Source: Candidatus Aenigmatarchaeota archaeon (GTDB lineage Archaea > Aenigmatarchaeota > Aenigmatarchaeia > GW2011-AR5 > JAGGXF01). From it: a stretch of 35,604 nt of DNA. How positions within the stretch are numbered: position 1 is the first letter of the stretch; each line of letters starts with the position of its first letter. Made by a program: the position numbers and the translations under genes. Below are positions 4,196 through 32,693 of the stretch, piece by piece. The stretch is from assembly GCA_029932645.1 (NCBI GenBank), contig JAOZPR010000006.1, positions 1 through 35,604 on the forward strand, written 5' to 3'. The notes below the pieces were generated by a model, which was given only the letters and a program-made list of their open reading frames with translations, did no database searches and was not told where the DNA came from.

Positions 4196-5524
4196 TTATT
4201 TTGTCATTGTTTTGTTGACCTGTTCCATGACCATCGACTGTATTTCATTGAGTTTGTCTTCTGTTTTTGCTTCGAACCTTAGGTTTATCATCTCTTCTGT
4301 GTTCGAACGCCGTATCATGGCCCAGCCGTCGTCGAAGATAATCTTGGCGCCATCTATTGTAATCATTTTCTTGGCCAGCGGGCTTGTCCTGAAATGCTTC
4401 GTAACCTTTTCCACGACCTCATCTTTATTTTTGCACCGCAGCCGCATGTCCGGACTGGAAAAGTATCTTGGCGCTTCTGCGTCAATCTTTGAGAGCTTGT
4501 TATTGCTGTTGCTGATAATTTCCATCATCCTCAGGGCAGCGAATATACCCTCGTCATAGCCGCCGTTTTCGCGGAAAAAGAAGTGGCTTGTTGTTTCACC
4601 AGCAAGTATGCCGTTTTCTTTGTTGAGCTTTTCTCTTAAAAATATCCTCCCTGCCTTGCTTACTATTGGAATACCGCCTGCTTTTTTTATTTCTTCTTCC
4701 AAGACCATACTGCTTCTTATGTCGTATATTATTTTTTCGCCTGGGTTTTTCTCTAATGCTTGTTTAGCGAATATTATAAGAGCTCTGTCGCCCAGAATAG
4801 TGCTGCCTTTATCGTCTATAAATACAGAACGGTCGCCATCGCCGTCAAAGCCTATGCCCATGTCAGCCTCTTTGTCGAGAACGGCCTGCCTCAGTTTTTT
4901 TATGTTTTCAGGTCTTGTCGGGTCTGGCATGTGGTTCGGATAATTCCCGTCAGGCTCCTCGAAAAGTATCTCATAATCGTGATCAAAGTTTTTCATAACC
5001 GCGTTGAGCGTTGGGCCAACAGCGCCATTGCCTGTGTCAAAGATTATCTTGAGCTGCCTTCCGAACGAAAACATGCCTTTGAGATAACTAATATAGTCTT
5101 GTAAAACATCTACCTTGCTCACAGTTCCCTTTTTTCCCGTTGGCGCACTGGGCTTTTTACTAAGTTCTTGAATCTCTGATTGCGAGAAGGTCATTGTGTC
5201 TGCCCAGCATGGTTTTATTCCGTTGTAATCTGGCGGGTTGTGAGACGCTGTTAGCATAATACCTGGCGCTTTGAGCTTCCTCATGGAAAAGTAGAACAAG
5301 GATATGGGAACCATACCTATGTCAATTACATTGGAACCAAAAGAAGTTAGGGCCTGGGTGACAGACTTCGTGAGTGAAGGACCACTAATCCGGTTGTCTC
5401 TGGCTACAATAATACTCTTGCTCTTGGTCATCTCGACAAAACGTTGTGCAATGTCTTTTACTGTGTTTTCGTTGATTTCGTCAGGATATTTTCCTCGTAT
5501 ATCATAAGGCTGGAATATTGACAT
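4196..5524 (-). CDS. Phosphoglucomutase/phosphomannomutase (alpha-D-phosphohexomutase)
   Basis: Phosphoserine loop TASHNPPDYNGIK, Mg loop GFDGDGDRSVF and sugar loop GETTSH. Length 442 aa. Confidence 0.9.
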   Translation of the reverse strand: MSIFQPYDIRGKYPDEINENTVKDIAQRFVEMTKSKSIIVARDNRISGPSLTKSVTQALTSFGSNVIDIGMVPISLFYFSMRKLKAPGIMLTASHNPPDYNGIKPCWADTMTFSQSEIQELSKKPSAPTGKKGTVSKVDVLQDYISYLKGMFSFGRQLKIIFDTGNGAVGPTLNAVMKNFDHDYEILFEEPDGNYPNHMPDPTRPENIKKLRQAVLDKEADMGIGFDGDGDRSVFIDDKGSTILGDRALIIFAKQALEKNPGEKIIYDIRSSMVLEEEIKKAGGIPIVSKAGRIFLREKLNKENGILAGETTSHFFFRENGGYDEGIFAALRMMEIISNSNNKLSKIDAEAPRYFSSPDMRLRCKNKDEVVEKVTKHFRTSPLAKKMITIDGAKIIFDDGWAMIRRSNTEEMINLRFEAKTEDKLNEIQSMVMEQVNKTMTK

Positions 5525-5527
5525 AAA

Positions 5528-5555
5528 CTTTATTTACCTAGTTAATTAAATAAAG
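5528..5555. promoter_or_regulatory. Back-to-back mirrored TATA boxes (CTTTATTTA on each strand) serving divergent PGM and GalT genes
   Basis: The plus-strand box at 5528-5536 ends 23 nt before the GalT ATG (5559). The minus-strand box at 5555-5547 ends 23 nt before the PGM ATG (5524). The whole intergenic region is 34 nt. Confidence 0.55.
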
Positions 5556-5558
5556 ATT

Positions 5559-6521
5559 ATGATAAACGAAATTAGGAAGGATTATTTGCTTGATAGATAT
5601 TCTATAATTGCTCTCAACCGACTTAAAAGGCCCAAAGACTTTAAGCTGGTCAGAACAAAAGAAAAAAAGATTACCTGCCCGTTCTGCCCTGGCCACGAAC
5701 ACATGACACCACCAACCATTTTCAAGATAGCTGGCCCGCGCAGATGGGAACTGCGTGTGATTGAGAACAAGTTTCCGGCGCTTTCAAAAAAGGCCAAGTA
5801 TAAAAAAATGGTAGGCGGTCTTACACCGGGCTTTACAGGTGCTGGGCATCATGAAGTTATAATAGAGTCTCCCAAGCATAAGAAAAGGCTGGAACAGTTC
5901 AGCGTCAAAAAGATTAAACAAATAATAGATGTCTACCAGCAACGTTTTGTTGCTCTCTCGAAAGATAAGAAGACCGGTTTTGTCTCAATATTCAGGAATT
6001 ATGGAAAGGCGGCCGGAACGTCCCTAACTCATCCGCACTCACAAATCATAGCAACACCGTTTGTTCCGCCGCTGATCAAAAAAGAGTTGAAGGCTGCTGA
6101 AGCATACAAGCGTAAAAAACGGCGCTGTGTGTTCTGCGACATTGTGAAAAAGGAACTCAAAAGCAGGCGGCTTGTTTATAAGAACAACTCCTTTGTCGCC
6201 ATATGCCCGTTTGCGTCCATAGTTCCATATGAGACATGGATAATAAGTAAAAGGCACGTGAAAAACGTCGCTGGGCTGACAGAAAAAGAAAAGTCATCGC
6301 TGGCCACTGCCTTGAAGACTGTTCTCGTGAGAATGAATAAAAAGATACCAGACATTCCGTATAATTATTATATTCACCAGGCTCCCTTGAACAGCAAAAA
6401 AGTTTATCACCTGCACATCGAGATTCTGCCTGCCCTCTCGGTCTGGGCAGGGTTTGAAAAATGCACAGGGGCATATATAAATACGGTTTCTCCAGAGGCT
6501 GCTGCCAAAAGTTTAAGATAA
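5559..6521 (+). CDS. galT: Galactose-1-phosphate uridylyltransferase-family (GalT/HIT branch III) nucleotidyltransferase
   Basis: CPFCPGHEHMTPP zinc/N-terminal motif and catalytic THPHSQIIA (H-x-H-x-Q). Length 320 aa. Confidence 0.85.
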   Translation: MINEIRKDYLLDRYSIIALNRLKRPKDFKLVRTKEKKITCPFCPGHEHMTPPTIFKIAGPRRWELRVIENKFPALSKKAKYKKMVGGLTPGFTGAGHHEVIIESPKHKKRLEQFSVKKIKQIIDVYQQRFVALSKDKKTGFVSIFRNYGKAAGTSLTHPHSQIIATPFVPPLIKKELKAAEAYKRKKRRCVFCDIVKKELKSRRLVYKNNSFVAICPFASIVPYETWIISKRHVKNVAGLTEKEKSSLATALKTVLVRMNKKIPDIPYNYYIHQAPLNSKKVYHLHIEILPALSVWAGFEKCTGAYINTVSPEAAAKSLR

Positions 6522-6540
6522 TAAAAAGTCTAAGATAATA
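6508..6540 (+). repeat. Imperfect tandem 16-mer AAAGT(T/C)TAAGATAATA x2, period 17, overlapping the galT stop codon
   Basis: Read directly: 6508-6523 and 6525-6540, with one mismatch. Confidence 0.5.
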
Positions 6541-6633
6541 TATTAGTCCAAGGCAATATATCAAAAACAATTACGCATCAATTACGATAAAAAATAGAAA
6601 CAAAAATTAAAAGTTTAGCCAACAGTTATTCTC

Positions 6634-6873
6634 ATGATAGATGAAGAGAAAATGGAAGTAAACGAATTCTTGAAAAAGATGACAGAACTAATCGCTAAGA
6701 AGTTTGATAAGCAAAAGCTGGCTGTGGAAGACATTGAAAGCGATGTTAGAGACCTTAAAATAACTATAACACAGCTTGAGCGGAAACTGGAATTGCTTCA
6801 GGAAAAGGTTGATGAACTTTCTGAGAAAAAGAAAGAGATTATAAGCTCCGATGTTCTGGAATCTTTGGAGTAA
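6634..6873 (+). CDS. Hypothetical small coiled-coil protein (79 aa)
   Basis: Heptad-like, E/K/L-rich sequence (LKITITQLERKLELLQEKVDELSEKKKE). I recognise no family. It occupies otherwise empty space on the plus strand. Confidence 0.4.
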   Translation: MIDEEKMEVNEFLKKMTELIAKKFDKQKLAVEDIESDVRDLKITITQLERKLELLQEKVDELSEKKKEIISSDVLESLE

Positions 6874-6883
6874 AGTGAGCAAG

Positions 6884-7378
6884 ATGTACAGTGAAATGGA
6901 TACTAGTAGTGGTAAGTCTGATAGTGGTTCGACTGACAGTGATGTAGAAGAAAAAATGGATGAGCTGAGAATAATCCTAGAGAAACAAGAGATGAAACTG
7001 GGAATAATAGAAGATAGTCTCAAGGAAATCGAGTCTGAGCTCGGAAGGAGCAGAAGACTCTTCAGCATGTACTTCATAGACCCTATAGTAGAAAGATTTG
7101 AGCACAATGAACAAGCTATCGAAAAGCTTGCCAATGAAACAAAAAGTAATTCTACTGCTTATGCTATTAACAGCAGAGAGCTAAACCAGAAAGTTAAAAA
7201 GACTGAGAACCGACTAGGGCTGATAGAAAAAAAGGTTGATATGCTTTTCGAGCTCATGGACAGGCGGCTGGAAAAAATCAAAGAGCTTTTTGATGAGAGA
7301 ACTGTTATAGAAAGCAGTCTCAACAGACTGAGAAAATCCAAAAAAATAGACAAAAAACTTCTAGATGAGCTTGTGTGA
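6884..7378 (+). CDS. Hypothetical coiled-coil protein (about 164 aa)
   Basis: Long helical E/K/L-rich ORF. The ATG at 6884 lies 10 nt after the upstream stop and is preceded by a GTGAG partial SD. The listed ATG at 6851 would overlap the previous ORF by 23 nt. Confidence 0.45.
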   Translation: MYSEMDTSSGKSDSGSTDSDVEEKMDELRIILEKQEMKLGIIEDSLKEIESELGRSRRLFSMYFIDPIVERFEHNEQAIEKLANETKSNSTAYAINSRELNQKVKKTENRLGLIEKKVDMLFELMDRRLEKIKELFDERTVIESSLNRLRKSKKIDKKLLDELV

Positions 7379-7387: not shown

Positions 7388-8902
7388 CTAGCTGAAAACC
7401 GTAAGAAGCATTCTTCTGGCTGGCACTTCTTTTCTTTTTGAGATTTCAAATGCGCTGCTGTGGTTGATAAACTTCAGCGCTTCGTTGAGCTTGCGGGTCT
7501 TATTAGAATATAATGTGAATAACGGCTCATTTATTCGTACACTGTCTCCGAGCTTCTTATACAGCTCTATACACGCGCCCTTCTCTTTTGGCGCGCCTGC
7601 TGTTTTACAGGCATCCACAAGCATTGTGTTGTTTATGGATGTAACAAAACCGCTTTTCTTCGCCTTGAATGTAATGTGCTTCGGGCCAAGCGATATGTCT
7701 TCTGGTTTGATCCTGCGATCGCCGCCTTGCGCTTCTATTATTTCCCGGAGCTTCTTTTCTGCCTTGCCAGAGTTGAAGATGTTAAGGGCAAGAGCTTTTC
7801 CGTTGCGCTTGCCAGCCATTTCAAGAAGCACGCCAGCAACAGATGCCGCTTTGTCTATCAAGTCCGGGGATTTGTGGTATGCGAACGTCTCCAAAACATC
7901 CCTTGCCTCTGCATTCGGCCCTATTGAATGGCCAATGGGTTGTTCACCATACGTAACAAGGACCTTTAGTTTGATATCGATCCTTTTTCCAACAGTGATG
8001 AACTTCTTTGCCAGCTCTCTTGCATCTCTCATGCAGTTGACCTTTGTATGACTGCCCAGCGGGATGTCTATAACAACAGTGTTCGAACCCATCACCTTTT
8101 TCTTTGCCAGAACACTTGGTATGAGCAAGGGGTCCATTGAAAGAGGATGTTCTATCTCTATGAAAAGGTCGTCTGCGGGTGCCAGGTCGAGAGCACCTCC
8201 CCAGACTATACAAGCATTTGTTTTTCTCACAATTTTTTTGATATCATCTGCAGAGAACTCCACGTTGGTCAAGACTTCCATGCGGTCAGCTGTTCCAGCA
8301 GGGCTTGTTATAGACCTAGAAGAGGTCTTAGGTATCTTAAGACCGGCTGCTGCCACTATAGGAACCACAAGCAGCGTTGTCTTGTCGCCAGGCACACCAC
8401 CAATTGAATGCTTATCCAAAACCTTTCCACCGAAAGTTATTTTCTTGCTCGTGTCTATCATTGCCTTTGTGAAATAGTAAACTTCTTTCTCAGTCATACC
8501 ACGAATTTGAAGAGTTGTTATCAGTGCTGCCAATTCCAAATCATTGAGATTTCTTTCAAGAAGGTCGTCCACAATAGCTCTTATCTTTCGGCAAGTCAAT
8601 TCTTTACCAGCAATTTTTTCATGAATAAACCTTTTTGACTCGAGCTCTGGCCGCGGTCTTACCAGTATAGTGTCTCCTGGTCTTGCCCTGAGTTCTTCTG
8701 CAGATTCCCTGTAAAGAACAATTTCCCCTTCTCTAACAAACCTCTTGCTGCTGTTTACAATACATGTGATATCATATTTTCCTTTCTTGACGATAACCCT
8801 GTTCATAGAAAATATTCCAAGCTTCTCAACATCCTTTTCGTTGAGTATAACTACTGCCTTCTCTCCGGCATCGAGCCCGGTGTTTTTGACTTTAAGTTTC
8901 AT
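7388..8902 (-). CDS. deoA: AMP phosphorylase (thymidine-phosphorylase family with N-terminal extension)
   Basis: HSIGGVPGDKTTLLVVPIVAAAG, KTSSRSITSPAGTADRMEVL and an N-terminal extra domain of about 85 aa. The start at MKLKVKN (8902) gives 504 aa, which matches my recollection of the Thermococcus enzyme N-terminus and length. Upstream ATGs at 8926 and 8932 would overlap the rbcL stop. Confidence 0.88.
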   Translation of the reverse strand: MKLKVKNTGLDAGEKAVVILNEKDVEKLGIFSMNRVIVKKGKYDITCIVNSSKRFVREGEIVLYRESAEELRARPGDTILVRPRPELESKRFIHEKIAGKELTCRKIRAIVDDLLERNLNDLELAALITTLQIRGMTEKEVYYFTKAMIDTSKKITFGGKVLDKHSIGGVPGDKTTLLVVPIVAAAGLKIPKTSSRSITSPAGTADRMEVLTNVEFSADDIKKIVRKTNACIVWGGALDLAPADDLFIEIEHPLSMDPLLIPSVLAKKKVMGSNTVVIDIPLGSHTKVNCMRDARELAKKFITVGKRIDIKLKVLVTYGEQPIGHSIGPNAEARDVLETFAYHKSPDLIDKAASVAGVLLEMAGKRNGKALALNIFNSGKAEKKLREIIEAQGGDRRIKPEDISLGPKHITFKAKKSGFVTSINNTMLVDACKTAGAPKEKGACIELYKKLGDSVRINEPLFTLYSNKTRKLNEALKFINHSSAFEISKRKEVPARRMLLTVFS

Positions 8903-8922
8903 CTCGGTTGTTGCACTTGTTT

Positions 8923-10143
8923 TCATCTCCATTTCTTCAGGGCCTCCTTTAGCTCATTGTGCGTCCTAGCATACTTATTTAGAGGCGTACCGCTGAGTGT
9001 CGCGTCCAGCGCCTGTCTCATGGCCCTGGCACCAGCCCCTGTTCCATCAGGATGGCCATGAACACCACCACCTGCCTGAATAACGATATCATTGCCCATG
9101 ATTTTCACAACCTCTGGAACCAGGCTTGGATAGAGTCCACCAGAAGCAACAGCAAAAACAGGTCTTAGGCCATACCAGTCCTGAGATAGATACACACCTG
9201 CGGCTACGTGCTGCCTTTGTATAACGTCTTTTATCAACATAACATCCTGTTTCGAGCCCTCCATCTTTCCGACAGCAGTGCCTATATGTAGCTGGTCCGC
9301 GCCTATAAGCCTAGCAAGCTTGGCAATCATATACATGGATATACCGTGTCTGCGGCTGCGCGTCACTGCTGCATGGCCGGCACGGTGCGCATGTATGACC
9401 ATTTTGTAATTCTGCGCGCGCAATTCCTGAAGAGCAGAAAAGCCTGCCGTGAGTATATCCAGCATTATACACTTTCCGCCGTGCGCACGGACAAAATCTG
9501 CCCTTTTAATCATCAGTCTGGACGGGGCCGTGACATTTGCCGCATAAAGAACAGTTCGACCCTGCTCTTCCTTTATTCTGTCAACAGTCTCTAGCGTTTT
9601 GACGACACGATCTTCAAACTTGCAGAACTTAAGAGAGGTTAAGTTTTCATCATCCTTGACAAAGTCCAGACCGCCAGAATAAGCCTCGTAGGCAACAGCG
9701 GCGAACTCTTTCGGCCGAAGACCGACCTTTGGCTTTATTATGGTTCCCAAAAGAGGTCTTTTCTTAATGCCCAAAATCTTTCGTACGCCTTTGAAACCAA
9801 ACCTGGGGCCGCGGAAGCTTTTAACATAATTCTTTGGAAGCTTGATGTCAACAAGCCTGAGATTATTTATTATTTTCATTCCGAAGATGTTTCCGGCTAG
9901 CGCAGAAAGCAGTTGCGGCACATTACCCAGCTCAAAAAGATTCAAAGGATATGCTATCTGGAGAGTTTTTGTTTTTTTGGAGTATTGAACAGTCCTTGGG
10001 CCAAGGTGCTTTCTCATTTTTGCGGTTAAGGTTTGTATGTCTGTCCATGTGCCTATAGAAGATTCTGCCATTATCTGTCTCGTCGCCTTCGTGGCAGAAA
10101 CCCCACAGGGCTCAAAATAATATTTAGCTATTAGCTCATCCAT
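8923..10143 (-). CDS. rbcL: Ribulose-1,5-bisphosphate carboxylase/oxygenase large subunit, form III-type (short, about 406 aa)
   Basis: ESSIGTWT, GNIFGMK, IIKPKVGL, GGLDFVKDDENL (carbamylated Lys motif), HAHRAGHAA, QLHIGTAVGKMEG, ASGGLYPSL and QAGGGVHGHPDGTGAGARA are all present. The ATG at 10143 is preceded by GTGATT. The listed start at 10152 is a GTG. Confidence 0.92.
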   Translation of the reverse strand: MDELIAKYYFEPCGVSATKATRQIMAESSIGTWTDIQTLTAKMRKHLGPRTVQYSKKTKTLQIAYPLNLFELGNVPQLLSALAGNIFGMKIINNLRLVDIKLPKNYVKSFRGPRFGFKGVRKILGIKKRPLLGTIIKPKVGLRPKEFAAVAYEAYSGGLDFVKDDENLTSLKFCKFEDRVVKTLETVDRIKEEQGRTVLYAANVTAPSRLMIKRADFVRAHGGKCIMLDILTAGFSALQELRAQNYKMVIHAHRAGHAAVTRSRRHGISMYMIAKLARLIGADQLHIGTAVGKMEGSKQDVMLIKDVIQRQHVAAGVYLSQDWYGLRPVFAVASGGLYPSLVPEVVKIMGNDIVIQAGGGVHGHPDGTGAGARAMRQALDATLSGTPLNKYARTHNELKEALKKWR

Positions 10144-10247
10144 TTTAATCACAAATAATTTTTACTTCCCTCGATATAAATAACTTCCCGGACGTTTGTC
10201 AATCAAAGCTTTAAAACTTTTCACGATTAATTATAACTGGTGATTGA

Positions 10248-15783: not shown

Positions 15784-15879
15784 ATGACTAAACGTGTAAT
15801 TCTTTATATATTATATCCAATTATATTTGATTATTATATATAGCACAGCCAATAGTCTGTTGTGTGTATTGTGGTTACT

Positions 15880-18330
15880 ATGGTAAGGGTCGACAGAATA
15901 ACAATGAGAGGGTTTAAGTCCTTCTCAGACAGAACTACCATACCTTTCCCTAGTGGATTTACTACTATTGCTGGTCCAAACGGTTCAGGAAAAAGCAATA
16001 TTGTAGATGCTATAACATTTGTTCTTGGCGTATCGTCTGCAAAGGCGATAAGGGCAAACCGACTGATAAATCTGATATTTAATGGTGGAAAAAGCCGGAA
16101 GCCGTCTGACCATGCCGAAGTTTCTTTATATATCGACAACAAGGACAAGAAGGTCGCATTGGATGAAGAAATAAAAATAACCAGAAAAGTCAACAGAAGG
16201 GGCCTGTCAATATATAAAATAAATGAAAGAACTGTAACACGACGGCGATTTCTGGAAATTTTAACAGCTCTTGGTCTGTCGCCAGAAGGATATAACATAA
16301 TAATGCAGGGGGATGTCACTAAAATCATAGAGATGAATCCGGAGGAGAGAAGACAAATAATAGATGATATCTCAGGAATATCAGAGTTTGAAGAAAAAAA
16401 ACAAAAAGCCCAGAAAGAGTTGGAAAAGGTGGAAACCAGGGTAAGGGAGATGTACATAGTAGTCAACGAAAAACTGAAACTAAGAGCACGCCTTGAAGAG
16501 GAAAAAAAGAATGCTGAAAGATATCTGACCATGCAGAAGAAACTTAAAAAACTCAAAGCAAGCCTAGTCAAGAGAAAGTTTGACGACCTGAAATACAAAT
16601 GGAAAGAAATGAGTATGAGTATAGAAAAAAACGAAAAGAAATTAAAAGAGACTAGTAAGGCATTGTCTCTCATTGATAAAGAACTATCTGAAAATGAATC
16701 ACTAATCAGCAAAACGCGGAGGGAAGTAATAGAAAAATCAAAAGACTTCTCATTGACAAAAGAGATAGACAAAATAAAAACCGAGTTGCTGAGAAAGAAG
16801 GATAAGATAGAATTCAATGAAAGAGATGTTGCCCGACTAAATTCTATAATAGAAAAAAGCGAGCAGACAAAAAACAAAGCAGTAAAGGAGATATTGAAGT
16901 TGGGCAAACCTTATGTTCACGGAACTGTTATGGATGTAATCCGTGTCCCTGAAAAATATTCTGTTGCGCTTCGGGTTGCTATAGGAAGCCATATCAATGA
17001 CATAATTGTCGACTCTGTTGAAAATTCCGTCGAGCTGATAAAGTTTCTGAAAAAAGAGCAGATTGGAAGGGCCAGGTTCATCCCACTCGACAGGATAGCG
17101 GGCAGGCCTATAAACAAAAAAGAAGATAAAAAAATCATAGGATATGCCATAGACCTGATAGAGTTTAATGAAAAATATCAAAAGGTTCTTGAGTACGTGC
17201 TCGGAAACACGGTTGTTGTTGAAAACATAGCCATTGCAAAAGACATAATAAAAAAGGAAAGAATGAGAATTGTGACAACCGACGGAGACCTTATAGAATC
17301 AAGCGGGGCAATGCTTGGCGGCTGGTATAAGAAAAAGGCCCCTGTTGTTGATACTAAAAAATACCTCAACGAAATAAAAACTATAGAACTGGAGAACAAA
17401 AAACTTTGGAAAGAAATAAGGACTCTTAAGAAAAAAATAAAAGAGCTGGAAATCAAGGAAAAAAAAGAAATTAGGGGAACCTCCTCGCTTGAAAAAGAAA
17501 TAGCTAAAACGGAAAAGAACATTTTCTCACTTAGGAACAAGAGAAAAAAATTATATGATGAGAAATCGGTACTAGAAAATAAGATAAGCGGGTTGAAAAT
17601 CAAACGCGCCGGACTAGAAGCCAAGCTAAGCAACCTTAGAATGGAAAAAGAGGAGTTTAAGGATATAAAGAACTTTTATAATATTTCTGTTGACGAACTG
17701 AAAGAAGGTATAAGAAAGGTCATAATAGAAATAAATGCGCTCGGGCCGGTAAACCTCCGTGCTATAGACGAATATAAAACAATAGATACGGAGTTTGGAG
17801 AACTAAAACAAAAACTTGACAAGCTCCTTGAGGAAAAGCATGCAATAACAAAAACTGCAGAAGAAATAGAGAAAAAGAGATATAAAAAATTCATGGAAAC
17901 ACTAATAGAGATATCTAAAAATTTTTCCAGAATATACAGTGACCTGACCAGTGGAGATGCTAATCTGAGACTGGTGGAGACAGAAGATATAGATTCTGGT
18001 CTTATTATAGAAGCCCAACCAAAAGGAAAAAAGATGTTGAATATAGACTCTATGTCTGGCGGGGAAAAAGCAGTAACTGCTTTGACATTTCTGTTTGCAA
18101 TACAACAGTACAAGGCCTCACCATTCTGTATTTTGGACGAGGCAGATGCTGCTCTGGATAAGGTTAACACAAAAAGAATTATCCATCTGATTAAAAAATA
18201 CTCGAAAAATATTCAATTTATTGTTATAACGCACAGTGATATAACCATTGGGGAGGCTGATAAGGTTTTCGGGGTCTCAATGGAAAATGGTGTTTCAAAA
18301 ATCTTTGGAATAAAGATGCCAAAGGAATAA
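15880..18330 (+). CDS. smc: SMC (structural maintenance of chromosomes) ATPase with unusually short coiled-coil arms (816 aa)
   Basis: Walker A GPNGSGKSN, a hinge (VHGTVMDVIRVPEKYSVALRVAIG ... RARFIPLD), LGPVNLRAIDEY, signature SGGEKAVTAL and Walker B FCILDEADAALD. The ATG at 15880 (MVRVDRITMRGFKSF) is preferred over the GTG at 15862. Confidence 0.9.
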   Translation: MVRVDRITMRGFKSFSDRTTIPFPSGFTTIAGPNGSGKSNIVDAITFVLGVSSAKAIRANRLINLIFNGGKSRKPSDHAEVSLYIDNKDKKVALDEEIKITRKVNRRGLSIYKINERTVTRRRFLEILTALGLSPEGYNIIMQGDVTKIIEMNPEERRQIIDDISGISEFEEKKQKAQKELEKVETRVREMYIVVNEKLKLRARLEEEKKNAERYLTMQKKLKKLKASLVKRKFDDLKYKWKEMSMSIEKNEKKLKETSKALSLIDKELSENESLISKTRREVIEKSKDFSLTKEIDKIKTELLRKKDKIEFNERDVARLNSIIEKSEQTKNKAVKEILKLGKPYVHGTVMDVIRVPEKYSVALRVAIGSHINDIIVDSVENSVELIKFLKKEQIGRARFIPLDRIAGRPINKKEDKKIIGYAIDLIEFNEKYQKVLEYVLGNTVVVENIAIAKDIIKKERMRIVTTDGDLIESSGAMLGGWYKKKAPVVDTKKYLNEIKTIELENKKLWKEIRTLKKKIKELEIKEKKEIRGTSSLEKEIAKTEKNIFSLRNKRKKLYDEKSVLENKISGLKIKRAGLEAKLSNLRMEKEEFKDIKNFYNISVDELKEGIRKVIIEINALGPVNLRAIDEYKTIDTEFGELKQKLDKLLEEKHAITKTAEEIEKKRYKKFMETLIEISKNFSRIYSDLTSGDANLRLVETEDIDSGLIIEAQPKGKKMLNIDSMSGGEKAVTALTFLFAIQQYKASPFCILDEADAALDKVNTKRIIHLIKKYSKNIQFIVITHSDITIGEADKVFGVSMENGVSKIFGIKMPKE

Positions 18331-25339: not shown

Positions 25340-25708
25340 ATGAAACCACCATGTGAGATTGTTGTCATGGAGCTGTTGCCGCAACTCAGAGCAATGCTGG
25401 CAAAAAATCTCTTGGACTCTAACATGAGCCAAGTAAAAGTAGCTGAAGTCTTGGGTGTCACACAGGGCGCTGTATCACAATATACCCACTCAATACGGGG
25501 GGCACAAAACCCCATAGTAAAAAATGAAGTAGTGAAAAAAAGAATGAACGACTTGTCTAAAGAAGTTCTGGCTGGTGCCGGGCAAGAGAAAATCATGCTT
25601 CGATTCTGTGATGTTTGTAAAGAAGTGCGTAGAAAAGGAATCTTGTGTAAAAGACACAAGGAGGCATATTCTTCTTTAAAAGATTGTGATATATGCCTCA
25701 AGAAGTAA
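25340..25708 (+). CDS. Small HTH (XRE-like) transcription regulator with C-terminal Cys cluster
   Basis: HTH MSQVKVAEVLGVTQGAVSQY. The C-terminus is C-x2-C-x9-C-x12-C-x2-C (RFCDVC...ILC...DCDIC). Confidence 0.6.
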   Translation: MKPPCEIVVMELLPQLRAMLAKNLLDSNMSQVKVAEVLGVTQGAVSQYTHSIRGAQNPIVKNEVVKKRMNDLSKEVLAGAGQEKIMLRFCDVCKEVRRKGILCKRHKEAYSSLKDCDICLKK

Positions 25709-25716: not shown

Positions 25717-26370
25717 TTATTGTTTTGTTTTCTCCTTCAGGAGAATGCGCTGGGCTACGTACCCTGTTATTCCCACCACCAGACACAGCAGACCAACATT
25801 CATCTCAAAACTCATCAAACCAGAGAAAAAGTTTTCAACAATCTCCGCTGGTATGTTCTGGCCTTTGAAAAACGAATCCATAGAAAACCTGAATAAAAGG
25901 CATGAAACGCCTGTGAGTATAAATATTATAGAAACCTTTTTAATTAGAGTCTTGATTTTTCTGTCCTGTAAATATATAAGCAGGATTCCGAGGAGAATAA
26001 AGACAATGCCGAACTTCAATGCGAGATTAAGCCAGTAATTAAGTTTGAACATAGAAAATCCGGCGAAAACCTCTTTCTTATACAACTCTTCCTTCTGGTC
26101 CAGCATCTCATTGTATTGTTTCTCTATTTTAATGCATGGCTGGCTTGTCTCGCCATACTTGGCACATATCTGGCTGATAACACTGTTCATATCAGAGCAT
26201 TCGGTTAGGTTGGCTTGCTCACAAATATCCGGCAACTGTTTCTCTACTGCTTTGTCAAAAACACTAGATAGAAACTGTTCACTTGTTATATTTGTAAGAT
26301 AAATGCTCTGGACAAACATAGAAAAAGACATTATCAGGATGAAACTTCCTATGATAGAAAGTAGTCTCAT
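25717..26370 (-). CDS. Hypothetical polytopic membrane protein with a 4-Cys extracytoplasmic helical domain (envelope cluster gene E)
   Basis: N-terminal hydrophobic helix, a Cys-containing segment (PDICEQ..TECSD..QICAK..QPC), and three further hydrophobic spans. A strong GGAGGA SD lies 6 nt upstream, and the ATG is 16 nt after the gene D stop. Confidence 0.6.
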   Translation of the reverse strand: MRLLSIIGSFILIMSFSMFVQSIYLTNITSEQFLSSVFDKAVEKQLPDICEQANLTECSDMNSVISQICAKYGETSQPCIKIEKQYNEMLDQKEELYKKEVFAGFSMFKLNYWLNLALKFGIVFILLGILLIYLQDRKIKTLIKKVSIIFILTGVSCLLFRFSMDSFFKGQNIPAEIVENFFSGLMSFEMNVGLLCLVVGITGYVAQRILLKEKTKQ

Positions 26371-26386
26371 CTATGTTCCTCCATAT

Positions 26387-27277
26387 TTATTCTTCTGGTC
26401 CCTCTTCGTATTCTTCCTCGTATTCTTCTGTCTCTTCTCCTTTGCTTGGCAAAAACATGTAGGCAAGAACAGCCACGATAATAATCACAACAGCTATTAA
26501 AATATAAATCCAGAACGGAAATCCCTTGGAAATTTTTTCTATCTCTTTATTAGCCAGGTCTATTTTGGTTCCTAAGTCCTTCAGGTTTGTGAAGGCGCTG
26601 AAGTAATCCCCTTTATCAATACCGGCTTTTGCAGCGCTGAGTTTACTCCAAATGTCATCGAAAATGCTTTGAGCAACTGTTGTATCCTTTCCCTGCTTTG
26701 TGAGCTTACTTATCGTCTTGTTCATATCAATGGCCTGGCTCATATAATTATCATACATCTCCTGTATTGTTGCTTTTGTATCTTCATCAGGAAGAACTTT
26801 CAGGCTCAGTTTCTTTTCATCCTTGACTTCTACTGTTCCTGATTTTCCAGCAACAGATATGGTCACGGTTTTGAGCTCGACTGTCGCGGTCTTTGGTATG
26901 TTAAAGGTTACATTCACATCTTTGGTCTCGCCTGTCTCCAGCGAGCTTATCGCACCGAAAGAAACCCACGTGGTTGTTATACCAGTTGCACCCAAAGAAA
27001 TGTCTGTTATTGACCCGCTCTCGTTATTCTTGATAGTTATCGAAATTGTTTTACTTGTCCCTTGTGTTATCTCTGCGCTGTCCGGACACTGGCTGATAAT
27101 CAGAAGTCCTCTGGTTGTCTCATTCGTTTCTATTGGCTGTGAAACATTTTCTATTGTAACTGTGAAATTCCCTGTTATAGTGGCAGCAGGCGTAGCAAAA
27201 ACCATGAGAGGCATGAATAATGAAAACATCAAAGTTAATGTTATAATTTCCATAAATTTAATGGTATTCATTCTCAT
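26387..27277 (-). CDS. Membrane-anchored envelope protein D: signal peptide, CARDB-like beta-sandwich, helical segment, C-terminal TM and acidic tail (paralog of gene B)
   Basis: Hydrophobic N-terminus, ITQGTSKTISITIKNNESGSITDISLG, LKVLPDEDTK, IDKGDYFSAF..LKDLGTKID, TM WIYILIAVVIIIVAVLAYMF, and tail EETEEYEEEYEEGPEE. Its ATG overlaps the gene C stop (ATGA). Confidence 0.7.
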   Translation of the reverse strand: MRMNTIKFMEIITLTLMFSLFMPLMVFATPAATITGNFTVTIENVSQPIETNETTRGLLIISQCPDSAEITQGTSKTISITIKNNESGSITDISLGATGITTTWVSFGAISSLETGETKDVNVTFNIPKTATVELKTVTISVAGKSGTVEVKDEKKLSLKVLPDEDTKATIQEMYDNYMSQAIDMNKTISKLTKQGKDTTVAQSIFDDIWSKLSAAKAGIDKGDYFSAFTNLKDLGTKIDLANKEIEKISKGFPFWIYILIAVVIIIVAVLAYMFLPSKGEETEEYEEEYEEGPEE

Positions 27278-29736
27278 GTGTAAACACCAATCGTATAGTT
27301 AGCTGTATAATTTCCTGTCGAAACGTTGGCAGGGATGGGAATATATACATCTATTGTCGCCTCTTTGGCATACTCACTTGAGGCTGTGTTGTCCTTAATT
27401 TCATGGACCTCCTGCGTCTCGTCAAAGCTATTTGTAACATTGTATGTTCTCTGTTTGTTGTTCCAATCTGTATAGGACATGACAGCTATGTCATCTATGT
27501 CAATGCTGTTTGACCCGGATTTCAGGTCTGTCATCTTTATCCTTATATAATTTCCTTTAACACTGAGATAGAATCTTACATAAAACTTGTCTGCTCCGGT
27601 ATTGTTTAATGTCCTGTCAGAAGGTAGTATAGATACGCTTCTGGTCAGTCGCACGCCTGGAACAGAATCTATAGCTACTGTTTTTGAACCAAGATTTCCC
27701 GCGATATCTTTTGCATAAACAGTAAGATTTAAAGAACCGATAGGCCAGTCTGTTGCCTTCGCATTCTCAATAACACATGCTGTGTTTCCACAGTCAGTAT
27801 CTGCCAAATTTATTGTGTTGTTTTCGATTACGTGTGAGCCATTTGTTATTTCATAATAGGCAGATGTTAGGTTCGGAGAATATGTCGGGCTCCATGTAAC
27901 ATTTAAGGTGAAGGTTGCCCCGATATCCTGACCAGATGTAGGAGATTTTATTGTAATAGACGGCGCAGTATCGTCCAGATAATACACGCACAGTGGAGTT
28001 GTCGTGTTTCCTCCACCAATAATAGAATTGCCAGCAGCGTCATCTCCTGTGATATAAAAAGATACTGAAGAGCCGCTGGAAGCAGATGTTTCATCAATGC
28101 TTTTTGTATATGTTGTGGTTGTCCCTTGTGAAGAGCCTGACTTTATGGACATCGCAGCACTGCTCCATGTACCACTGCCGAATCTCCAATACAACATAAT
28201 CGTGCTCGCGGTTTTTATGTTGTCATGGAGTGTAATCTCTATAGTCCTGCTGGAAGATGATTGCATGTATTCGTTGTTTGGCGGGCTGTGTGAATATATA
28301 GTAGGGCCGGAATCATCAACATATATTGTCTTGGTTGTGTCTGTGACATCGTTGTCATCTATGTCAGATATTATGTTTATTGTATCACCATTTTGTGCAT
28401 GGATAGAAGAACCGGCAACTGTGCTGTTGCTAATATTAAAGCTGCCCAAGTACTTTCCTTTATAGGTAGAATTTTCTGTAACGGTTATTGTTGTCCCTGT
28501 CGGGTCTGTGGTGCTATTTATGGTAACAGAACCTGTTCCCAAGTTGGCAGCAGCATATACCTCTACGAAGATTTCATCTGCAGCACTTACATAGTCTGCT
28601 ATTGTTCCGCTAGCAGAACCACGCCTAACTATAACCTCATCTGGATTAACATCGTAAGAAACAGAGTCTGTCGCATAAACGCTGTTCCCGTCGATATCAG
28701 CCCAAGCATATACGGTTGCACCATCTGATGCGTTTATCCACTTGTTGCTTTGGCTGCTTGCAACCTCTGCTGCCTGGAACGTTCCCTCGAAAATTCCCGT
28801 ATTAGCGCCTGTCTCGTTTACCATAATAGTTATTCCACTCGCGTCATTGGTGCTATTTATCGTGACTGTGCCGTTTTCTGCATCTGAAGAGTCCTTGTTC
28901 ATTGACGGGTTATATACCCTGACTTTTATCGTGTCCCAGGCATTTACTTCTGTTATGTTTGTGTCGTTTGCTGACAACAATAAAACCTTATCCAAGACTG
29001 TTATGTTTTTTGTTGCGTCCGTACCATCGTCTCCTTCTACGTCTGAGGTTATGATTATAGTATCATTGTTGGAAACCTGGAGAATGTCCTGTGGGTCATT
29101 GCTGCTTGACGTGGATGTTGAAAAACTACCTTTGTACCAGCCCGGGTATGTACCAGACTCGGTCAGCGCAACAGATATGCCTGTTGGGTCTGCCGTGCTT
29201 TTAACAGTCATCTCCTGTGTACCGCTCTTGCCGGACGAAACAGTAACATAAACTGTCTGACCTATAGAAAAGTACGTTAGCTGCGTATCATTGTAAGGAT
29301 TGCTTTGAACTTGCCTATATGTCCTTATTTCATCTGGGTCATTGTCATATGTGAGCGTGTCTGTGCCAGGATCGGCTTTATTGTCCATATCTGCGGTAAC
29401 AGTTACAACAGAACCGTCTGCTACCTCTATTATATGGTCGTCGGCACTACTCGTTGTTTCCGCGGTTATGAACCATCCCGTGTATGTTCCAGAGCTACCT
29501 GTCAGGTAAACAGTAATACCTGTTGTGTCTGCTGTGCTTGTAACATTGGCCGTATAAATTTCGGCTGCAGAATTGACAACCTTTATCGTGATGTTGTTCC
29601 ACGCGTTTGCTGTTGTTACATCGTTGTTGTTCTTGTCGAGAAGGCTAACAATGTCCTGAACAGCATATACGGTATAAATGCTACATAACAGAAAACCACA
29701 TAATAATAAAAGTACTGACAAACTTAATCTTCTCAT
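27274..29736 (-). CDS. Large secreted, unanchored surface protein C (820 aa): four repeats of about 110 aa, two Ig-like modules and a C-terminal domain shared with gene A
   Basis: Signal-like N-terminus (LSVLLLLCGFLLCSIYTVYA), four repeats carrying a T-x-D-x-T/S-G-I/T-[ST]-[IV] ... G-x-[FY] ... D-x-D pattern, DDSGPTI and DDTAPSI domain starts, many N-x-S/T sites, and no C-terminal TM. Confidence 0.7.
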   Translation of the reverse strand: MRRLSLSVLLLLCGFLLCSIYTVYAVQDIVSLLDKNNNDVTTANAWNNITIKVVNSAAEIYTANVTSTADTTGITVYLTGSSGTYTGWFITAETTSSADDHIIEVADGSVVTVTADMDNKADPGTDTLTYDNDPDEIRTYRQVQSNPYNDTQLTYFSIGQTVYVTVSSGKSGTQEMTVKSTADPTGISVALTESGTYPGWYKGSFSTSTSSSNDPQDILQVSNNDTIIITSDVEGDDGTDATKNITVLDKVLLLSANDTNITEVNAWDTIKVRVYNPSMNKDSSDAENGTVTINSTNDASGITIMVNETGANTGIFEGTFQAAEVASSQSNKWINASDGATVYAWADIDGNSVYATDSVSYDVNPDEVIVRRGSASGTIADYVSAADEIFVEVYAAANLGTGSVTINSTTDPTGTTITVTENSTYKGKYLGSFNISNSTVAGSSIHAQNGDTINIISDIDDNDVTDTTKTIYVDDSGPTIYSHSPPNNEYMQSSSSRTIEITLHDNIKTASTIMLYWRFGSGTWSSAAMSIKSGSSQGTTTTYTKSIDETSASSGSSVSFYITGDDAAGNSIIGGGNTTTPLCVYYLDDTAPSITIKSPTSGQDIGATFTLNVTWSPTYSPNLTSAYYEITNGSHVIENNTINLADTDCGNTACVIENAKATDWPIGSLNLTVYAKDIAGNLGSKTVAIDSVPGVRLTRSVSILPSDRTLNNTGADKFYVRFYLSVKGNYIRIKMTDLKSGSNSIDIDDIAVMSYTDWNNKQRTYNVTNSFDETQEVHEIKDNTASSEYAKEATIDVYIPIPANVSTGNYTANYTIGVYT

Positions 29737-29759
29737 TATTTATTTCTTAGAAATCGCGG

Positions 29760-29768
29760 AATATAAAG
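29760..29768 (-). promoter_or_regulatory. TATA box CTTTATATT at -32 to -24 of the gene C ATG (internal, leaderless-type promoter)
   Basis: It is the reverse complement of aatataaag at 29760-29768. Geometry and sequence class match the galT and PGM boxes. There is no SD in front of gene C. Confidence 0.4.
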
Positions 29769-29796
29769 TTTACCAGTCCCTGGTATGACATAACAA

Positions 29797-31128
29797 CTAG
29801 CTGGCGTAGCCAAAACCGTTCTTATCCTTTTTGAAAAGGCTCTTCAAATATTTATGAACGCGTTTTGCATGCTCCTCGAACTTTGTATCACTCGCGCTCT
29901 CGGCTGACGACAAGGTTTCGTGCTCATCTTTTGCCTCTATCATTGGTGGAGCTGCTCCTTCAAAACCTGTGGGTTTCTTTTTATTGGAATAAAAATAGTA
30001 GGCTGCCAGAGCCATAATAACTATAATGACAGTATAAACGACATACAAAAGGATTTGAGAACCGCTGGCCAGCGAAGAGAGCTTTACTTGTTCTAAGCTC
30101 TGTTTTATTTGATCTATTTTAGAGCCCACATCATTCATAAGTTGTATCGCTTCATAGTAGTTTCCATCGTCTATTTTCTTTTTAACTTCACCCAGTTCTT
30201 GTCTCACGACAACAAGCAGCGACTCTGCCTCTGAAACATCATGACCACGGGCTTTCTCCTGGTTTATTATATTTCCCAGCTCTTCGAGCACATCGGTATA
30301 ATTTAGATATGTCTGGTTAGCCTTCTTTTTCGTTTCCTCGCTTGGCAAAACCTTCAAGAGAAATGTCTCTGTACCAGAAATAGTAACACCACTCGGGTCC
30401 TTTGCACTGACCTCCAACTTAACCGTATATGTCTTGACCTCGTTGTTTTGTGGTATAGAAAAGTTAACATAAGAATACTCTTTCTCATCGACTTCAAGAG
30501 ATGAAAAAGAACTGGTTGTGATTTTATACAGCGCCAGTGGGACACCACTTAGGGTTAATTTCACATCTGTCAGGTCTTTTTCGCCGTCGTTTATTATCTC
30601 TACTTTAACTTTTTTCGTCTGCCCCTGAATTATTTCTATATTAGACAGCGCGCTAATATCTATAGACGATGCTGGGGCGGTTTCTTCTTCCTCTCCACTA
30701 GAACCGCTGTCTTGAGACGAACTGTCTGCAACACAAACACCACCAGAACAGTGTTCACCTTCTGCACAAATAGATGTTGAGAACGAACCAGAAGCGCTGC
30801 ATGTTCCTATCGTGTCCGTTGAGATGCATTCAGACGTGCCAGCCGCAATAACATTTCCATCATAAACACAATCATTCGCGCCGGAAACACAGTATTTGTT
30901 GCCGTCGTTTTCATCATCGACACAGTGACCACTGATACACTGACTATCATAGGAACACTGCTCGCCTGTACCAAGGCCCGTTGTTCCCGCAACCATGCCT
31001 GTTGGCGGATACTGTGTGTTGCCTATATCAAGAGTGCCGGTGTATTCTGCGTTAGCTGGCTGAATCAAAAACATCTGGATTAATAAAACCAATGAAAGTA
31101 TGATAATAATTTTTTTCATCCGAATCAT
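29797..31128 (-). CDS. Membrane-anchored envelope protein B: signal peptide, Cys-rich module, acidic/Ser linker, CARDB-like beta-sandwich, helical segment, C-terminal TM and a cytoplasmic tail of about 70 aa
   Basis: Signal IIIILSLVLLIQMFLIQPANA, CSYDSQCISGHCV..YCV..C repeats, IIQGQTKKVKVEIINDGEKDLTDVKLTLSG, LKVLPSEETK, IDDGNYYEAIQLMNDVGSKID and TM ILLYVVYTVIIVIMALAAYYFY. Confidence 0.7.
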   Translation of the reverse strand: MIRMKKIIIILSLVLLIQMFLIQPANAEYTGTLDIGNTQYPPTGMVAGTTGLGTGEQCSYDSQCISGHCVDDENDGNKYCVSGANDCVYDGNVIAAGTSECISTDTIGTCSASGSFSTSICAEGEHCSGGVCVADSSSQDSGSSGEEEETAPASSIDISALSNIEIIQGQTKKVKVEIINDGEKDLTDVKLTLSGVPLALYKITTSSFSSLEVDEKEYSYVNFSIPQNNEVKTYTVKLEVSAKDPSGVTISGTETFLLKVLPSEETKKKANQTYLNYTDVLEELGNIINQEKARGHDVSEAESLLVVVRQELGEVKKKIDDGNYYEAIQLMNDVGSKIDQIKQSLEQVKLSSLASGSQILLYVVYTVIIVIMALAAYYFYSNKKKPTGFEGAAPPMIEAKDEHETLSSAESASDTKFEEHAKRVHKYLKSLFKKDKNGFGYAS

Positions 31129-31141
31129 CTAAAAAGCAATA

Positions 31142-32362
31142 CTATTGGCAGGCTATGCCATACGTCGTTGTCCAGGAACTAGATATCGCAGACGTGAGTG
31201 GCACAGTGACATTTGCTGTGAAGTTTGCCTGTATGCCGTTGCTCTCGTCACTGTCTTTATCCGTGAGCAAGATTTCAGCGCCACCTGAGTAGGCATTTGC
31301 TATGGTAAAACCGCCTGACTGCGTTGAATTATATATTTTAACGTTTGAAACTGCTATGGTCGTGTCGCCGCTGCTCGCCGTCGTTGTCCAGTCAGCCATT
31401 TTTATTTTTAGTGTACAGTTTGCTGGATACGTGATATTAAAGAAGAATCCCCAGTCGTTTTGACCAGACTTTAGCACGGCTGTGGCATCCCGTCTGGTTG
31501 TGTCTTCAACAAGCGTTATTGTGTTGTTTATGAATATGTTTTTAGATATGTCCTGCGATAGATTCACATTACCAACATTATCATAAACCCTAATCGAAAT
31601 ATTAAATGTTCCGGAATTGTTTGTTATCTGATTCGTATCAAAATTGCTCCAATATAGATTATTACCAAGGCTGTTAAGTGTAAAAGAAAACCAAGAGCTA
31701 TTGTCGGTCGCGTTGGAAAACATGACCGAAGCATTCTTAAGCCCGCTCCCGCCGTCAGACGCGTTGATTGTTATATTTATTATGCCATTGGTTGTGCTGC
31801 CTTCTGTTATGTTACCCCACTTGCTGTGAGTTATGTTTTTCAGCGAAAGTGTTGGTACCGCCGTGTCTATACCTGTTATGTTTGTTGTGCTATTGGTCGA
31901 AGAACTGTTGTCCATTGTGGTAATGTTCCAAGTCTGATTAACTTCGCCAGTCTGCTCAGCTATGGCATTGAACCAGATATAAGCTGTCTGGCTCGGACCA
32001 AGCAATGGCGTGGCTGATTTGTTGACACATACGATTTTCGATATGTTTGTTGCATTCGGGCCAGTTGCATTGTATCCCTCACAGCTCCAGTTTGTCAGGG
32101 ATATGCCTATAGATGAATTATAAACAGTGAAATTCTTTGTGGCCCCGTCAAAAGGCACAGATATGTTTATCTCTGTTACATTATTGTTGCCGGTTGGGTT
32201 GGTAATGGAAAAATTATATGTCGCGTTTGTCGTCTCATTGACCCAATAATTGTTGTAAGTGTTGTTCCCTGTTATGACCACAGAAACGTTTGGCGCTTCG
32301 ATAGCTAAAACTCCCACGGCGATTAAAAACAAAGCAAGCAATATCTCAACAATTCTTTTCAT
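31142..32362 (-). CDS. Secreted, unanchored, extremely N-x-S/T-rich surface protein A (406 aa)
   Basis: The ATG at 32362 is preceded by GGAG 5 nt upstream. Signal-like MKRIVEILLALFLIAVGVLAIEAP, and about 35 N-x-S/T sequons by my count. The listed TTG extension to 32446 runs into the tRNA gene, so I reject it. Confidence 0.7.
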   Translation of the reverse strand: MKRIVEILLALFLIAVGVLAIEAPNVSVVITGNNTYNNYWVNETTNATYNFSITNPTGNNNVTEINISVPFDGATKNFTVYNSSIGISLTNWSCEGYNATGPNATNISKIVCVNKSATPLLGPSQTAYIWFNAIAEQTGEVNQTWNITTMDNSSSTNSTTNITGIDTAVPTLSLKNITHSKWGNITEGSTTNGIINITINASDGGSGLKNASVMFSNATDNSSWFSFTLNSLGNNLYWSNFDTNQITNNSGTFNISIRVYDNVGNVNLSQDISKNIFINNTITLVEDTTRRDATAVLKSGQNDWGFFFNITYPANCTLKIKMADWTTTASSGDTTIAVSNVKIYNSTQSGGFTIANAYSGGAEILLTDKDSDESNGIQANFTANVTVPLTSAISSSWTTTYGIACQ

Positions 32363-32437
32363 AATATCTCCGAATAATTTATGGTCGCATGTTATATTTA
32401 TGTTTTTTTGAAGAAGCCGAAAACACCCCCGGCGGGA

Positions 32438-32521
32438 ATTTCGCAACCCATCTTTGTAATAGCGAAGCCTAAGTTTCTTTTGGGTGAACTTAAGCCTTTT
32501 CTTTACAAAGAAAAGGGTTAG
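32438..32521 (-). other. tRNA-Arg intron 2 (non-canonical 59/60 position in the T-loop, 84 nt) with a strict hBHBh' motif
   Basis: GCGGG / TTCG / [AAC] / TAACCC ... GGGTTG / CGAA / [ATT] / CCCGC. Splicing after the second nucleotide of each bulge restores the T-loop TTCGAAT. Confidence 0.8.
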
Positions 32522-32543
32522 TTCGAACCCGCGACCCCTTGCT

Positions 32544-32630
32544 CTCTCCGAATGAAGTTTTGATCATATCTCTGCCGAAGCAGAAATCATCTCACCTCCA
32601 TATCGTCATAGTCTGGCTGATAGCAACCGT
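32544..32630 (-). other. tRNA-Arg intron 1 (canonical 37/38 position, 87 nt)
   Basis: A 4-bp central helix CTCC(32-35)/GGAG is flanked by 3-nt bulges TAA and AGA. The internal hairpin is TCTGC-TTCG-GCAGA. Confidence 0.75.
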
Positions 32631-32693
32631 TAGGAGGCAAGTGCTCTATCCAAACTGAGCTACGGGGGCATCAATTAAAAATAATAACTATAA

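Follow-up and report, generated by a model that had tools for sequence, protein, structure and literature searches.

The five genes named here A, B, C, D and E raise the question of which part of an archaeal cell surface they encode. They are co-directional, all on the minus strand and in the order A-B-C-D-E, within a stretch of 35,604 nucleotides (nt) that was analysed as a whole and is called the window (contig JAOZPR010000006.1, positions 1 to 35,604), from a metagenome-assembled genome (MAG) of an uncultivated archaeon of the Aenigmarchaeota (DPANN). Their products have 406, 443, 820, 296 and 217 amino acids (aa), respectively, and the five open reading frames (ORFs) are present with the positions and lengths given in the original prediction, a reading made from the letters alone, whose quoted peptide strings are all found in the translations. 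That reading proposed an unanchored canopy protein plus an anchor protein with a transmembrane (TM) segment, twice over, and this arrangement is upheld by the paralogy of B and D, a C-terminal domain that A and C probably share, synteny in four lineages, a C-D fusion protein (P0063) and fusions of B with the gene in the position of A in two lineages. The explanation preferred here, with a probability of roughly 0.6 for the explanation as a whole, is that the products of the locus make up two canopy-and-anchor pairs, held together non-covalently, of the Aenigmarchaeota cell envelope, probably of a surface layer (S-layer). On sequence grounds, support for the canopy-plus-anchor reading is good for C:D and reasonable for A:B. 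Related loci are designated by L-numbers and related proteins by P-numbers. The five genes show the following features:

31142..32362, minus strand: gene A, 406 aa, with a signal peptide, no other TM segment and 35 N-x-S/T sequons (ORF, hydropathy).
31145..31516, minus strand: C-terminal beta domain of A (aa 283-406), common to A-like proteins of other lineages, with a putative docking role.
29797..31128, minus strand: gene B, 443 aa, with a signal peptide, a 10-Cys domain, a NEW3/CARDB-like beta-sandwich, three helices, one TM segment and a basic amphipathic tail.
30346..30663, minus strand: beta-sandwich of B (aa 156-261), probably of the NPCBM_assoc/NEW3 type (Pfam; AlphaFold2 (AF2) model with a predicted local distance difference test (pLDDT) of 80-90).
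29998..30339, minus strand: helical region (aa 264-358) and TM segment (aa 359-377) of B (hydropathy, AF2).
27274..29736, minus strand: gene C, 820 aa, with a signal peptide, four repeats of about 110 aa, two immunoglobulin (Ig)-like domains, a C-terminal beta domain, no TM segment and 26 sequons.
27277..27654, minus strand: C-terminal beta domain of C (aa 695-820), whose counterpart in the fusion P0063 is directly before the D-like part.
26387..27277, minus strand: gene D, 296 aa, a paralog of B, with a signal peptide, the strand ITGNFTVTI, a NEW3-like beta-sandwich, helices, a TM segment (aa 257-275) and the tail EEYEEEYEE.
25717..26370, minus strand: gene E, 217 aa, with an N-terminal hydrophobic segment, a Cys-containing ectodomain of about 95 aa and three TM segments (hydropathy).

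A and C correspond to the canopy. In the hydropathy scan, each shows an N-terminal hydrophobic segment as its sole hydrophobic segment, as had been proposed, and both are rich in N-x-S/T: A contains 35 sites (8.6 per 100 aa) against 13.6 expected from its composition (z 7.0), and C contains 26 against 16.2 (z 2.8). The Ig-like domain of A begins at IDTAVPTL and those of C begin with D-D-x-x-P; these domains of the two proteins are linked just by a D-x-x-x-P motif and a weak OmpL47-type match, and their comparison by hidden Markov model (HMM) is not significant (66/500 shuffles). The fold of C is all-beta in an AF2 model of low overall confidence. The homologs found for A make up just two clusters, of 99% and 82% identity, and phmmer, run over the whole set of PDB sequences, found no relative of A or C and no SlaA. 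Anchoring of A and C by a lipobox or by PGF-CTERM was rejected: both proteins lack a hydrophobic segment at the C-terminus, where their last residues are TTYGIACQ and YTIGVYT, respectively, and the Cys of the signal peptide of C is not conserved among orthologs.

The alignment of the C-terminal domains of A and C, which had been made by eye, stands at the profile level but not in pairwise comparison or with thin profiles. Pairwise BLASTP is not significant (E 0.75) and hhalign of a two-sequence against a four-sequence profile gives a probability of 1%. The A-family profile was then built after gathering A-like proteins from other contigs, and the six-sequence A-family and five-sequence C-family C-terminal profiles align end to end over 116 columns with an hhalign E-value of 4.2e-4; as controls, six other segments of C give E-values of 0.02-0.85 and the anchor module gives 0.58. 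A and C thus probably share a C-terminal domain, with moderate support.

B and D correspond to the anchors. Both show an N-terminal hydrophobic segment and a single C-terminal TM segment by hydropathy, and the proposed paralogy is evident by BLASTP (30% identity over 184 aa, E 6e-23) and reaches the mature N-terminal strand, [ST]-G-[NT]-[FI]-x-[VI]. In other lineages the orthologs of B cluster with B and those of D with D, which makes the duplication older than the lineages concerned. The N-terminal domain of B contains ten invariant cysteines. The beta-sandwich had been called CARDB-like; its best match is NPCBM_assoc/NEW3, of the same E-set clan as CARDB, and not CARDB itself. The Pfam scores for NPCBM_assoc are 22.8 bits for B and 21.2 bits for D, with a cut-off of 24.4 bits, which is exceeded at the homologous positions of relatives (47.4 bits in P0027, 40.9 in P0049 and 30.2 in L007). 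The sandwich is thus probably of the NPCBM_assoc (PF10633)/CARDB (PF07705) type, and these models omit the helical part, the TM segment and the tails.

The monomer model that AF2 gives for B from an alignment of three sequences is confident over residues 155-350 and shows the sandwich, then helices at 264-293, 299-320 and 324-382 (pLDDT 80-92 in the helical region), the third of which continues into the TM segment, and an amphipathic helix in the tail. The breaks between the helices fall at the conserved G295 and at a D-x-G-N-Y turn motif. Of the stalk proposed for B and D, the helical part and the TM anchor are present, but the helical part is modelled as three helices and not as one coiled coil; according to this model, a short pedestal of three helices is more likely than an unbroken coiled coil of the SlaB kind. 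The tails differ: B-type tails are basic and amphipathic (HAKRVHKYLKSLFKKDK; window 29797-29997), with a net charge of +2 to +10 over the stretches scored, and D-type tails consist of acidic E/Y repeats (window 26390-26452), with a net charge of -6 to -10, which is -10 for D of the window. This opposite charge is kept in every lineage, L001, L004 and L005 included.

As regards gene annotation, public calls start B about 19 codons downstream (window 31072-31128; 6207 in L002), giving 425 aa in P0001 and 424 aa in the L002 call, and the public call of D in L001 (13882) also begins late, giving 272 aa. These late-start calls lose the signal peptides of B and D, and the longer, signal-bearing ORFs agree with the orthologs.

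The adjacency of A/C-type and B/D-type genes is conserved, since four lineages have the five genes in synteny: the window genome (L002/L003), L001/L006/L008, L004, and L005/L007/L009. In all four the cluster is between the PINA ATPase gene and the HTH (helix-turn-helix protein)/IscS genes. In comparison with L004, identity is 24% for B, 40% for C, 34% for D and 23% for E, A shows no significant match, and the neighbouring PINA and IscS show 62% and 61%, respectively; across relatives the identity of C is 40-77%. The envelope genes, as judged from these sequences, diverge faster than their neighbours, which is the pattern expected of exposed envelope proteins. A pattern scan of genome contigs found two species representatives, both Aenigmatarchaeota, by an insensitive method that says little on distribution; the scan of metagenome contigs with the four-sequence B-type alignment, by the same insensitive pattern method, gave no match, and the C-family contig scan gave just two loci, from lineages already in the set.

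The main evidence comes from proteins in which canopy and anchor form one chain. P0063 (MFH0832527.1, 841 aa, from an Aenigmatarchaeota MAG) was found both by the anchor profile and by the C-family HMM; its residues 39-592 align to residues 264-816 of C (3e-50) and its residues 598-840 to residues 34-279 of D (6e-20). By these alignments P0063 is an end-to-end fusion of C and D in which the signal peptide of D alone is dropped. In L007 the positions of A and B are occupied by one ORF of 1638 aa, which shows, in this order, a signal/TM segment, a sequon-dense region of about 1000 aa, a Cys-rich domain, a PGF-pre-PGF domain, NEW3, helices, a TM segment and a basic tail; the PGF-pre-PGF domain is identified by TIGR04213 (92 bits), yet the protein has a plain TM anchor. 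The A-B arrangement of L004 is collinear with the L007 ORF and is broken by a single frameshift, and its B has no signal peptide: at 8333-8372 the ORF in the A position ends at 8369 (stop to 8372) and the B frame is open from 8333, so that the two overlap by 37 nt in adjacent frames. Either the assembly contains a frameshift at this point or the gene was split, recently or in a programmed way.

The pairing also recurs in distant lineages. In L010, L012 and L013 (with a fragment in L015) a B-type gene is directly after a gene encoding a protein of 441-457 aa with a signal peptide, no other TM segment and 38-41 sequons (8.6-9.1 per 100 aa), which in L010, L012 and L013 carries the C-terminal domain of A. 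A small 4-TM protein is encoded after the B-type gene in two of these three lineages.

Some further observations concern P0063 and its contig (L011). In the region 3824-7134 the fused C-D gene is near genes encoding GT2 and GT22/PMT_2-type glycosyltransferases, and further upstream, at the contig end, there is an incomplete gene of at least 1074 aa; this region may be a surface glycosylation neighbourhood. Residues 597-666 of P0063 show a weak match to ArlG, the archaellum stator (E 0.002).

The anchor module, defined as the NEW3/CARDB-like beta-sandwich, three helices and the TM segment, belongs to a large family. In an exhaustive search with its profile, the number of representative clusters (50% identity) was 870 at E <=1e-3 and 335 at E <=1e-10. 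In all of the top 150 proteins the module is C-terminal; about 60 of them are B-type (380-470 aa, ten Cys) and about 70 are proteins of 750-1800 aa with 5-8 sequons per 100 aa and the layout of single-chain archaeal surface glycoproteins. Acidic tails are found in three of the 150, all of them D orthologs. For the helical/TM part of the module there is no model in Pfam or NCBIfam. The remark that these families could not be recognised thus holds in that no named family exists, but the anchor module, with its 870 clusters, is not rare.

Gene E encodes a polytopic protein, as proposed, with an N-terminal segment and three TM segments in the hydropathy scan. It follows D in all four lineages and overlaps it by 4 nt in L004, L005 and L007. 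E has no family match in Pfam or NCBIfam, and the small membrane proteins encoded after B in L012 and L013 show no detectable homology to E.

Within the cluster the spacing is 13 nt between A and B and 60 nt between B and C; C and D overlap by 4 nt (ATGA), as is confirmed by their coordinates, and the GGAGGA site reported ahead of E is present in the 16-nt spacer between D and E, ATATGGAGGAACATAG. Two regions contain putative expression signals:

29761..29785, minus strand: hairpin TACCAGGGACTGGTA, then TATA-like CTTTATAT, about 25-35 nt before the start of C (consensus match only; putative function).
32366..32403, minus strand: TATA-like ACATAAATATAA, with GGAGAT, immediately ahead of the start codon (ATG) of A (read from the sequence; the same elements are found in L001).

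Given the hairpin and TATA-like element of the B-C spacer, A-B and C-D-E are probably two transcription units with their boundary in this spacer. The likely start of A is the ATG at 32362 rather than that of a longer TTG-start version, because the latter would overlap a tRNA gene. The flanks contain housekeeping genes, namely those for a PINA-type ATPase, a cysteine desulfurase, ribosomal proteins S3Ae and S15, SMC/ScpAB, form III RuBisCO, AMP phosphorylase and glycogen enzymes. All the homologs bearing names are from Candidatus Aenigmarchaeota/Aenigmatarchaeota MAGs. By these flanks and homologs, the locus belongs to the core chromosome of an uncultivated DPANN archaeon and not to a mobile element.

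According to the preferred reading, A and C would be Sec-exported, heavily N-glycosylated, all-beta ectodomain proteins without a membrane anchor of their own, and B and D would be type-I membrane proteins carrying a NEW3/CARDB-like sandwich on a three-helix pedestal, whose last helix runs into the TM segment. Each canopy protein would be held at the surface by physical binding to the anchor encoded downstream. The contact would most likely be made by the C-terminal beta domain of A or C with the N-terminal strand and ectodomain of B or D; this interface is proposed because the C-terminal domain and the N-terminal strand are contiguous in single-chain relatives. The pairs, together with the 4-TM protein E, would form a proteinaceous cell coat, probably an S-layer, and as such may build a lattice and be abundant at the surface. 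The conserved part of this coat would be C-D, and A-B would be its outer part, which evolves fast and is the most glycosylated. A more specific version is quite doubtful: these would be split S-layer proteins in which the canopy domain is completed or clasped in trans by the N-terminal strand of the anchor, in a donor-strand-like manner, and the tails of B and D pair under the membrane, giving a four-protein, two-canopy S-layer.

Several results weigh against two canopy-and-anchor pairs of an S-layer, and some of them bear on what else the proteins could be. The part fused to B in L007 and L004 shows no detectable similarity to A of the window, and therefore the evidence from fusion for A:B is positional and not homology-based. 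P0063 stands alone in a different genomic context, which shows that such pairs need not act together with A-B or E. The overall confidence of the AF2 models of C and B is low (pLDDT 61 and 63, respectively), and Foldseek of these models against PDB gave just generic beta-sandwich/Ig matches: CARDB and PapD-like single sandwiches for B (TM-score <0.25 relative to the query) and multi-Ig/macroglobulin strings for the low-confidence model of C (TM-score <0.2). Finally, the anchor module is a general device: in P0049 (1446 aa, JGI metagenome) it is C-terminal to a subtilase (Peptidase_S8, 110 bits) and Big_13 domains, and the module is therefore a general surface anchor, not tied to one cargo. Since the module bears many different ectodomains, a protease included, the pairs could be decorations anchored to the surface of an ectosymbiotic DPANN cell, for instance adhesins or proteins for host recognition, with the S-layer encoded elsewhere. 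The hypervariability of A, which is limited to two close lineages, is as expected of a protein exposed to hosts or viruses, and the DPANN archaeon Nanobdella has several Ig-rich, TM-anchored glycoproteins besides its proposed S-layer protein (10.1101/2023.10.27.564410). Such decorations are conceivable, though less likely: the place of the cluster in the core genome is the same in four lineages, C keeps a fair degree of conservation (identity 40-77%), and the Kustd1514 S-layer glycoprotein model NF052345 matches, with its repeat region, three of the four N-terminal repeats of C (residues 149-471; E 1.5e-12), all of which favours an S-layer. The Kustd1514 protein is an experimentally shown anammox S-layer glycoprotein, which is bacterial, O-glycosylated and 1591 aa long (PMC5088730); C scores 45.8 bits against a family cut-off of 1400, so that the repeat type alone is shared. 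A-B, C-D and E could also be subunits of one hetero-oligomeric envelope complex, in which the anchors B and D pair via their pedestals and oppositely charged tails and the two modules are not alternative versions. The basic B-type and acidic D-type tails of every lineage, the restriction of acidic tails to D orthologs among the top 150 module proteins and the translational coupling of E to D are in agreement with it, but such a complex is unlikely given the A-B units, with or without a small membrane protein, that occur without C-D in L010, L012 and L013, the C-D fusion that occurs alone, and the B-C spacer with its own hairpin and TATA-like element.

It can also be asked whether B and D are divergent true homologs of SlaB of Sulfolobales and the whole system a member of the SlaA/SlaB family. 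The module profile matches SlaB of S. acidocaldarius (PDB 8QOX; 8qox_B) at E 0.021 and 17 bits, in a collinear way (end of the sandwich, helix, TM segment), and none of 500 block shuffles reaches this score. The same SlaB segment, however, matches 291 Pfam families at E <=10, the best 25 of which are mostly unrelated coiled-coil families at 23-36 bits, and the 17-22 bit SlaB match therefore carries no weight; SlaB homology of the anchor was rejected after this coiled-coil control. SlaB is absent from the matches of the full-length B-type profile, SlaA is absent from those of A and C among PDB sequences, and the helix of SlaB is continuous over 132 aa and forms a trimeric coiled coil (PMC10903991), in contrast to the three helices with conserved turns in the model of B. 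Common descent with SlaB is thus very unlikely. Closest to negligible, and already disfavoured, is an incidental adjacency of unrelated secreted and membrane proteins without physical link, against which stand the conserved order, the translational coupling, two independent kinds of fusion and the recurrence of the same pairing in distant lineages.

The two canopy-and-anchor pairs preferred here can be compared with three kinds of known systems. The original description as SlaA/SlaB-like in logic but not in sequence agrees with the PDB searches, which gave no SlaA, and with a SlaB match indistinguishable from coiled-coil similarity. As in SlaA/SlaB, the genes are adjacent, a glycoprotein without anchor (predicted in this case) is combined with a protein showing beta-sandwich, helical part and C-terminal TM segment, and the outer protein evolves faster than the anchor, here within the A-B pair. 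The differences are that there is no credible sequence homology, that SlaB has two or three beta-sandwiches and one helix of about 130 aa, whereas B and D have one NEW3-like sandwich and three modelled helices, plus the 10-Cys domain in B, and that the window contains two paralogous pairs and a 4-TM protein and has fused single-chain relatives. These relatives (L007 AB, P0063 and about 70 of the top 150 module proteins) resemble single-chain archaeal surface glycoproteins in their layout of signal peptide, long sequon-rich beta ectodomain, C-terminal TM segment and short cytoplasmic tail; in the window, unlike in these glycoproteins, ectodomain and anchor are separate polypeptides, and NEW3 with three helices and a TM segment is not a described family. 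In Nanobdella aerobiophila, also of the DPANN, a SlaA-like protein (MJ1_0160) and a SlaB-like protein (MJ1_0707) were proposed from transcript abundance and predicted structures, in a 2023 study which states that no DPANN S-layer protein had been determined so far (10.1101/2023.10.27.564410). This pair is likewise an anchorless Ig-rich glycoprotein and a separate Ig-rich protein with a C-terminal TM segment, but by locus tags its genes are not adjacent, and no fusions between them were found in the study (10.1101/2023.10.27.564410). A literature search found a SlaA-like/SlaB-like split proposed just for Nanobdella and no described envelope protein of Aenigmarchaeota.

Other features of the window concern the neighbours of the cluster. 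Convergent to E, on the plus strand (25340-25708), there is a gene encoding an HTH protein of 122 aa with a Cys-rich C-terminal tail (CxxC...CxxC), which keeps this position in each of the four lineages, at 120-122 aa and 56-68% identity; the protein may regulate the cluster, or the gene may just be a conserved neighbour. Between the PINA gene and A, on the minus strand (32424-32669), there is a tRNA-Arg(CCT) gene with two introns: one of 87 nt at the canonical 37/38 site and one of 84 nt in the T-loop near 59/60. This gene was missed by ARAGORN and by the Rfam gathering scan; after in-silico splicing ARAGORN calls tRNA-Arg(cct) with a canonical cloverleaf. The ortholog in L001 (about 8420-8580) contains only the first intron, and its intact T-loop is the same as that of the spliced product predicted here; the T-loop intron was thus gained recently. 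At its core (ATGACGATATGGAGGTGAGATGATT...GCTTCGGCAG...ATATGATCAAAACTTCATTCGGAGA; window about 32545-32630, minus strand; L001 8460-8545), the first intron is near-identical in these two lineages, whose proteins are about 70-88% identical, a pattern that hints at a functional RNA encoded in the intron; Rfam gives a weak C/D-box sR60 match for it (15 bits, E 0.52).

Elsewhere in the window, an SMC protein of 822 aa is encoded on the plus strand (15862-18330), followed by ScpA and ScpB, with halves of the SMC_N head at both ends and the hinge at 350-462. Canonical prokaryotic SMC proteins have about 1100-1200 aa, and the coiled-coil arms of the window protein would be much shorter. On the minus strand (7388-10152) an AMP-phosphorylase-like gene adjoins that of form III RuBisCO, with glycogen and sugar-nucleotide genes upstream. 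AMP phosphorylase and form III RuBisCO act together in the archaeal AMP salvage pathway, and this gene set is ordinary for DPANN genomes.

For the Aenigmarchaeota, the locus is a concrete candidate envelope system, with an interaction hypothesis that is founded on natural fusions beyond adjacency. The cell surface is where DPANN ectosymbionts meet their hosts and viruses. The large unnamed anchor family, with 870 clusters, could help to find surface proteins in DPANN metagenomes, and the existence of split and fused forms of the same proteins suits the mapping of the canopy-anchor interface. The finding also bears on how two-component S-layers of the SlaA/SlaB kind could have arisen from single-chain ancestors, or single-chain forms from two-component ones. 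If the doubtful version with clasped strands and paired tails is true, this would be a split S-layer without counterpart among characterised archaea and the first molecularly defined envelope of this DPANN phylum.

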